In this document: piece after piece, positions 46,942 through 47,110 of the stretch | Numbering within the stretch: position 1 is the stretch's first letter | How the letters are laid out: the number at the start of each line of letters is the position of its first letter | DNA from: Octopus vulgaris | Taxonomy: Eukaryota | Length of the DNA: 64,000 nt | Direction of reading: 5' to 3' | NCBI GenBank assembly: GCA_951406725.2 | Contig: OX597831.1 | Coordinates: 39,928,001 to 39,992,000 of the forward strand | Program-made: the position numbers and the translations under genes | Notes under the pieces: model-generated | Databases searched by the model: none | Told to the model about the DNA's origin: nothing | The model's input: the letters and a program-made list of their open reading frames with translations, nothing else

Positions 46942-46986
46942 CTTGACTCATGTTCTTTTCTTCTTTTTTTCTTCTTCCAGGTAAGT
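46942..46986 (+). promoter_or_regulatory. Candidate recursive splice site (3' acceptor abutting a 5' donor)
   Basis: Branch-like CTTGACTCAT, a 26-nt pure pyrimidine run (46953-46978), then AG|GTAAGT at 46979-46986. Confidence 0.65.
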
Positions 46987-47110
46987 GATTGAAAATTCAA
47001 TTATGAATCGGAGGTCATCAGACCAATCAATGTTAGTTGTATGTGCTACGGTTGCAAAGGTAAATTACTTCACTGCTGCTTTATTTCCCTTCTTCTCTTA
47101 ATTTACTTTG

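Follow-up and report, generated by a model that had tools for sequence, protein, structure and literature searches.

The 64,000-nucleotide stretch of Octopus vulgaris DNA analysed here (the window) lies, on the evidence of protein homology, wholly within one long intron of a gene on the + strand. An exon scan over 200 kb on each side recovered GH47 mannosidase exons downstream on the + strand, one of which shows 100% identity to the mannosyl-oligosaccharide 1,2-alpha-mannosidase IA-like protein labelled Octopus vulgaris. That NCBI protein (458 aa) comes without a membrane anchor and stem, whereas the Argonauta protein P0004 has both, and an N-terminal exon at C18:39654508 (+) displays 100% identity to residues 14-75 of P0004. 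The last residues encoded by this exon are ...REKVKE, followed by a GT donor (39655140|141). Coding resumes at 40030086 with an exon that starts with MMKFAWD; no stem-region exon was found between these two, and the stem-exon and catalytic parts are contiguous in proteins P0004 and P0005. Based on these matches we infer that the host is a + strand gene for a Golgi alpha-1,2-mannosidase IA-like (GH47) enzyme, in which an intron of 374,945 bp separates the membrane/stem exon from the first catalytic exon, presuming that the assembly is correct over 375 kb. The intron rests on homology because the 11 matches to the first-exon protein include no full-length Octopus protein, the best being P0004 and P0005. 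Across most 10-kb bins of the region T exceeds A on the + strand. An enclosing long + strand intron had been anticipated by the initial annotation, and the homology to P0004 bears this out; the accompanying hint at a neuronal gene finds no support, the host being a gene for a Golgi glycan-trimming enzyme.

Since the first residues of the NCBI protein map downstream of the window, an annotation look-up might wrongly label the region intergenic. NCBI protein P0002, which omits the membrane/stem exon, takes its first ten residues from C18:40003081, inside the giant intron, at a place with no obvious acceptor; the O. bimaculoides protein P0003 is likewise truncated.

Anatomy of the focal site

The focal site (G000:C18:39974981) is placed 319.8 kb after the start of the host intron and 55.1 kb before its end, and comprises the following elements (window coordinates, with negative offsets counted from the cut):

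1..64000, + strand: part of the phase-0 intron G000:C18:39655141-40030085, by homology to Argonauta protein P0004
46942..46951, + strand: branch-point-like motif, in which the adenines at 46946 (-35) and 46950 (-31) are candidate branch points
46953..46978, + strand: T-rich pyrimidine tract of 26 nt, with TT at -6/-5
46979..46986, + strand: AG directly joined to the consensus donor GTAAGT, the candidate ratchet point, with the cut at 46980|46981
46981..47059, + strand: predicted cryptic RS-exon of 79 nt, as read from the sequence
47057..47065, + strand: downstream donor of the RS-exon, AAG|GTAAAT, which scores below the regenerated ratchet donor

The branch-like motif CTTGACTCAT begins at window 46942, and the 26-nt length of the pure pyrimidine run 46953-46978 includes the C of CAG; upstream, the nearest AG is 46 nt away. 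The initial annotation had reported the branch-like motif, the 26-nt run and CAG|GTAAGT at 46980|46981, and we recovered each at these positions. It had also called the juxtaposition the only one of its quality. In agreement with this, the focal site is the sole match to Y10-N-YAG-GTRAG with 0 mismatches in the 64-kb window (shuffles average 2.7 at <=2 mismatches), and it tops a composite acceptor and donor score across 464 kb on both strands. On the opposite strand, window 14488-14506 (-) holds a weaker juxtaposition of an acceptor with GTGAGT, which is antisense, is without TT at -6/-5 and is likely due to chance.

The regenerated ratchet donor scores 7.9, versus 4.3 for the donor AAG|GTAAAT at +79. 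GT hexamers lie 51, 58 and 79 nt past the cut, all of them proposed earlier as secondary donors, but the first two score 0.8 and -0.5, so that the proposal stands for +79 only. Stops in all three frames fall within 12 nt past the cut, as had been claimed; the frame-1 TAA, however, is inherent to GTAAGT, and random draws that begin with this hexamer have stops in all three frames over the same distance in ~1% of cases. The predicted 79-nt RS-exon is not a multiple of 3 in length, and the host reading frame meets a stop at its codon 4. A cysteine-rich coding reading of the RS-exon in frame 0, which would need read-through of a TGA, was dropped, as the mannosidase is complete without an additional exon at that point.

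No self-BLAST repeat covers the focal site, and a 181-bp stretch around it has a single match in the 2.8-Gb genome, at G000:C18:39974930, in a search that skips simple repeats; the site thus lies outside repeats as originally stated, though repeats flank it closely. These are found on either side at 46253-46556, ~46565-46738 and 47108-47486, with the tract, the site and the cryptic exon uninterrupted. Elsewhere in the window, 7120-7617 is a tandem array of 26 copies of a 19-bp unit (91% identical). A search of 45300-49300 against Rfam gave no match at E<=0.1.

Comparisons with sequencing runs and close relatives add the following. No RNA run is listed as covering 45300-49300. Two of 21 runs guessed to be RNA (X1, X2) were compared with 46560-47105 and returned 0 contigs apart from diverged repeat pieces, which is no evidence either way. 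Contigs of runs X19/X20 align from exactly 46981, an apparent junction that was rejected: 46739-46980 was skipped as a repeat in the alignment, and by minus-strand coordinates these contigs hold 272-273 letters left of 46981, which fits contiguous genomic DNA. In two very close relatives, organisms D and E, both donors are intact, and 46981-47105 (125 nt) carries 1 and 2 differences, respectively. This comparison covers the donor half of the motif and, at so small a distance, says little about selective conservation; the +51 donor is altered in organism E.

Related motifs in the host intron and across the genome

We then examined whether strong acceptors in the host intron directly precede strong donors. 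On the sense strand 5/63 do so, versus 0.19 expected, and on the antisense strand 0/36; with the focal site excluded, 4/62 strong sense acceptors still carry a donor (p=5e-5), the splice matrices behind these counts being approximate, generic and self-made and the thresholds chosen with the data in view. The four additional motifs are:

G000:C18:39760778, 39832943, 39871999 and 39875229, + strand: acceptor|donor motifs in the same intron, outside the window

Together with the focal site they give a density of ~1 site per 100 kb in the host intron. TT is present at -6/-5 in 4/5 intron sites, and those four TT sites would delimit segments of about 106, 72, 39, 103 and 55 kb, with the fifth site 3 kb past the third. 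The motif at 39832943 is a match to Y20-TAG|GTAAGT, so that two Y20-YAG|GTAAGT motifs fall within the host intron. Of the other four intron sites, only one is followed by a good second donor in the next 100 nt.

Extending the analysis to the whole genome, in the context Y10-TT-N we counted 73 instances of CAG|GTAAGT, 50 of CAG|GTAAHT, 11 of AAG|GTAAGT and 39 of AAG|GTAAHT. The two-by-two test of CAG/AAG against GTAAGT/GTAAHT returns an odds ratio of 5.2 (p=9e-6). Since AAG suits donors well and acceptors poorly, the excess of GTAAGT hinges on the acceptor. Using AAG as the control, ~14 of the 73 sites are expected, which leaves an estimated excess of 59 sites, or about 81% (61-92%) that are not due to chance. 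The focal site, whose anatomy the initial annotation had read as that of a ratchet point with an RS-exon, belongs to this non-random class of 73. At -6/-5 the dinucleotide TT accounts for 73 sites versus 7 with CY, and allowing GTRAGW raises the number to 126 sites, a raw count with no background subtraction.

In the genome-wide scan with a Y20 tract that the initial annotation had suggested, Y20 plus CAG is followed by GTAAGT more often than by any other of the 16 hexamers (13/65, with a local background of about 3%). The stricter Y20 contrast of YAG with AAG (29/137 vs 2/28, from a hand tally of 100/110 rows among the matches listed) points in the same direction without significance (p=0.11). 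By eye, ~5/16 TAG|GTAAGT matches look repeat-derived, and in an all-against-all BLAST of the sites almost all matches, among those listed, are limited to the motif itself. Groups of near-identical C-rich tracts that run into TAG|GTAAGT or ACAG|GTAAGT have the appearance of repeat families, with examples at G000:C2:56263537, C2:83430262, C7:43718961, C14:84500841 and C18:63903470; it is possible that repeat families with a ready-made acceptor|donor motif are a source of new sites.

Two further properties characterize the class. Firstly, neighbouring sites 20-500 kb apart form 9 same-strand pairs and 0 opposite-strand pairs, against 0.44 expected and 0 in both control sets. Same-strand clusters are seen on the + strand at C13:4.47-4.81 Mb, C9:104.96-105.62 Mb, C8:50.9-51.0 Mb and C23:40.2-40.5 Mb, and on the - strand at C8:15.10-15.58 Mb and C6:97.1-97.3 Mb; such clusters probably mark other giant genes. 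The T-skew of the flanks does not separate class from controls (p=0.5), and between same-strand pairs 14/18 samples are negative without tandem repeats (13/18 with them), a weak signal from non-independent samples. Secondly, 38/70 class sites have a second donor at +20..100, as opposed to 3/70 with one upstream, 10% at distal positions and 7/40 among controls (Fisher p=2e-4; 70/73 class sites and 40/50 GTAAHT controls were retrieved). Strong second donors are enriched at the GTAAHT controls too (4/40, p=0.002). The cryptic exons predicted in the class have a median length of about 50 nt, and only 9/38 lengths are multiples of 3, so that these predicted RS-exons do not resemble coding exons.

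These observations bear on the simplest alternative, namely that the focal juxtaposition arose by chance in a T-rich, microsatellite-rich intron and is unused. The site was picked post hoc from 64 kb in which the + strand alone offers 31 pyrimidine runs of >=20 nt, and chance does account for the expected 14 or so members of the class. Against it stand the class excess itself, the same-strand clustering, the enrichment of second donors and the occurrence of two Y20-YAG|GTAAGT motifs in a single mannosidase intron; where a class member is accompanied by a second donor, a rough posterior of 0.96 favours an origin other than chance. We accordingly regard a chance origin as unlikely.

Recursive splicing as the favoured explanation

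What the genome shows directly is the anatomy of the sequence, a coding exon on either side and a genome-wide class that is not random. In light of these, we propose with good, though not full, confidence that the focal site is a recursive splice site (ratchet point) of the type known from flies. It is likely one of four or five ratchet points in the intron, with a predicted cryptic 79-nt RS-exon, and these points would likely cut the 375-kb intron into pieces of roughly 40-105 kb, suggesting that the intron of the octopus mannosidase gene is likely removed stepwise. Upon transcription, U2AF/U2 on the T-rich tract and AG, together with U1 on the +79 donor, would define the short exon, and the upstream exon, or the product of a prior ratchet step, would be spliced to 46981. 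This would regenerate a strong donor, GAG|GTAAGT, at the junction, which is predicted to beat the +79 donor and then to be joined across the remaining 55.1 kb to the catalytic exon, so that the mRNA would bear no trace of the event. On the rare occasions when the +79 donor was used instead, a stop would follow three inserted codons, and decay would be likely.

The same elements could serve a regulated poison cassette: ordinary alternative splicing would retain the 79-nt exon, its 5' end would not be spliced a second time, and the mannosidase mRNA would be directed to decay. The strong acceptor, the credible +79 donor, the frameshifting length and the stop at codon 4 are all compatible with such a cassette, but it fails to explain the fivefold genome-wide enrichment of the full donor consensus at exon starts, and the regenerated donor outscores the one at +79 (7.9 versus 4.3); we consider it decidedly unlikely. 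A selected ‘poison’ function, as the wording of the initial annotation would suggest, is unsupported, the premature stop being a side effect.

Another possibility is that an intronic promoter drives a shorter transcript, of which the predicted RS-exon is an internal part. An ATG at +23 of the predicted RS-exon opens 19 codons (47003-47059) in frame with the catalytic exon, probably a coincidence; translation from it would yield an enzyme without the membrane anchor. Frame 1 is indeed open from this ATG to the +79 donor and ends at a codon boundary, and NCBI proteins of two Octopus species are without the N-terminal part. Yet an in-frame arrangement is expected by chance in 1/3 of cases, the catalytic exon has its own ATG ATG, the truncated proteins have other N-termini and the class would be left unexplained, making this transcript highly improbable.

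CAG|GTAAGT is the optimal donor consensus. Least probable, to the point of being barely credible, is that it simply acts here as an ordinary donor closing a pyrimidine-rich non-coding exon, a role its match to that consensus would suit, since the AAG context, good for donors and poor for acceptors, is without excess, second donors lie downstream rather than upstream, and an AG-free zone and a branch-like motif precede the site.

The ratchet-point interpretation finds its closest counterpart in Drosophila. Ratchet points there are recognized by AG|GT preceded by a strong tract that has TT at -6/-5, by their place in a long intron, and further by junction reads, saw-tooth coverage and conservation (10.1101/006163); TT occupies -6/-5 in 196/197 sites and branch points fall at -36 to -21 (10.1101/006163). 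As described in PMC8605326, fly sites have a cryptic exon of ~50 nt, and in competition the regenerated donor prevails over the donor of this exon. The focal site displays the sequence features of these sites, namely AG|GT, the tract, TT at -6/-5, a weaker second donor and a place, assigned by protein homology, on the sense strand of a long intron and away from the coding exons. The likeness extends to the YnTTNCAG|GTAAGT form, with branch-like A at -35/-31 in the octopus, to several sense-strand sites per very long intron, and to a short, out-of-frame cryptic exon with a weaker second donor, the median in the octopus class being about 50 nt. The scale differs: Drosophila introns of this kind reach <=133 kb, with segments of mean 18 kb and maximum 64 kb (10.1101/006163), versus 375 kb and predicted segments of 39-106 kb in the octopus. 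Furthermore, Drosophila is an insect with RNA-validated sites, whereas the octopus is a mollusc whose candidate sites come from genome sequence.

A recursive site also occurs in the fly member of the same gene family. PMC6110457 gives a high-confidence recursive site at 10198454 in a 44-kb intron (X:10173224-10217598, dm3) of FBgn0259170, and its supplement also flags the site as found by Duff et al. FBgn0259170 is alpha-Man-I, the sole fly orthologue, and PMC4006722 places alpha-Man-I in GH47 subgroup B, with one ancestral Golgi gene. The fly intron is a long early one, no. 2 or 1 by isoform, and the octopus giant intron likewise follows an exon with an upstream acceptor; the fly site differs in its GTGAGT donor and 44-kb intron, and the comparison of the two is at the level of the gene family.

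Vertebrate RS-sites and RS-exons, as presented in PMC5126111 and PMC8605326, share YAG|GT, a competing downstream donor and a premature stop upon inclusion; for mammals, no more than nine sites that are fully suppressed and lie in long introns are definitively noted there. In number and in TT preference the octopus class appears to resemble the fly sites. A survey reports RP-site enrichment in large introns with sense above antisense in fly, mosquito, bee, beetle and sea urchin, an excess that the octopus shares with these invertebrates, and the 13 species it sets out include no mollusc or other spiralian (PMC2773006). In lungfish, conserved recursive sites were not found to be in ubiquitous use (10.1101/2024.12.11.627982). 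Consistent with the initial annotation, which knew of no such case in cephalopods, our literature search, with subscription journals largely outside it, found no report of recursive splicing in molluscs, cephalopods included.

Implications for giant introns

The mechanism itself is known; what would be new are the mollusc lineage and the much larger intron, and the host gene is shared with Drosophila. More speculatively, it is conceivable, if doubtful, that the octopus uses fly-type recursive splicing at at least 100 sites, in introns of several hundred kb that are removed in segments reaching about 100 kb, and that the ratchet points of the fly and octopus mannosidase genes descend from the same intron of a protostome ancestor, which would have been removed stepwise for >500 million years with sites added as the intron grew. 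The giant intron has likely split the annotation of the host gene, the NCBI mannosidase protein being without the real first coding exon, and motifs of this kind may flag other giant introns at which annotation splits genes. The 73 coordinates make the class directly testable with total-RNA data. If RNA confirms the prediction, recursive splicing with cryptic exons would extend to molluscs; this would fill a missing branch in the question of whether fly-type ratchet points are ancestral, and would bear on how giant introns are handled in giant genomes.
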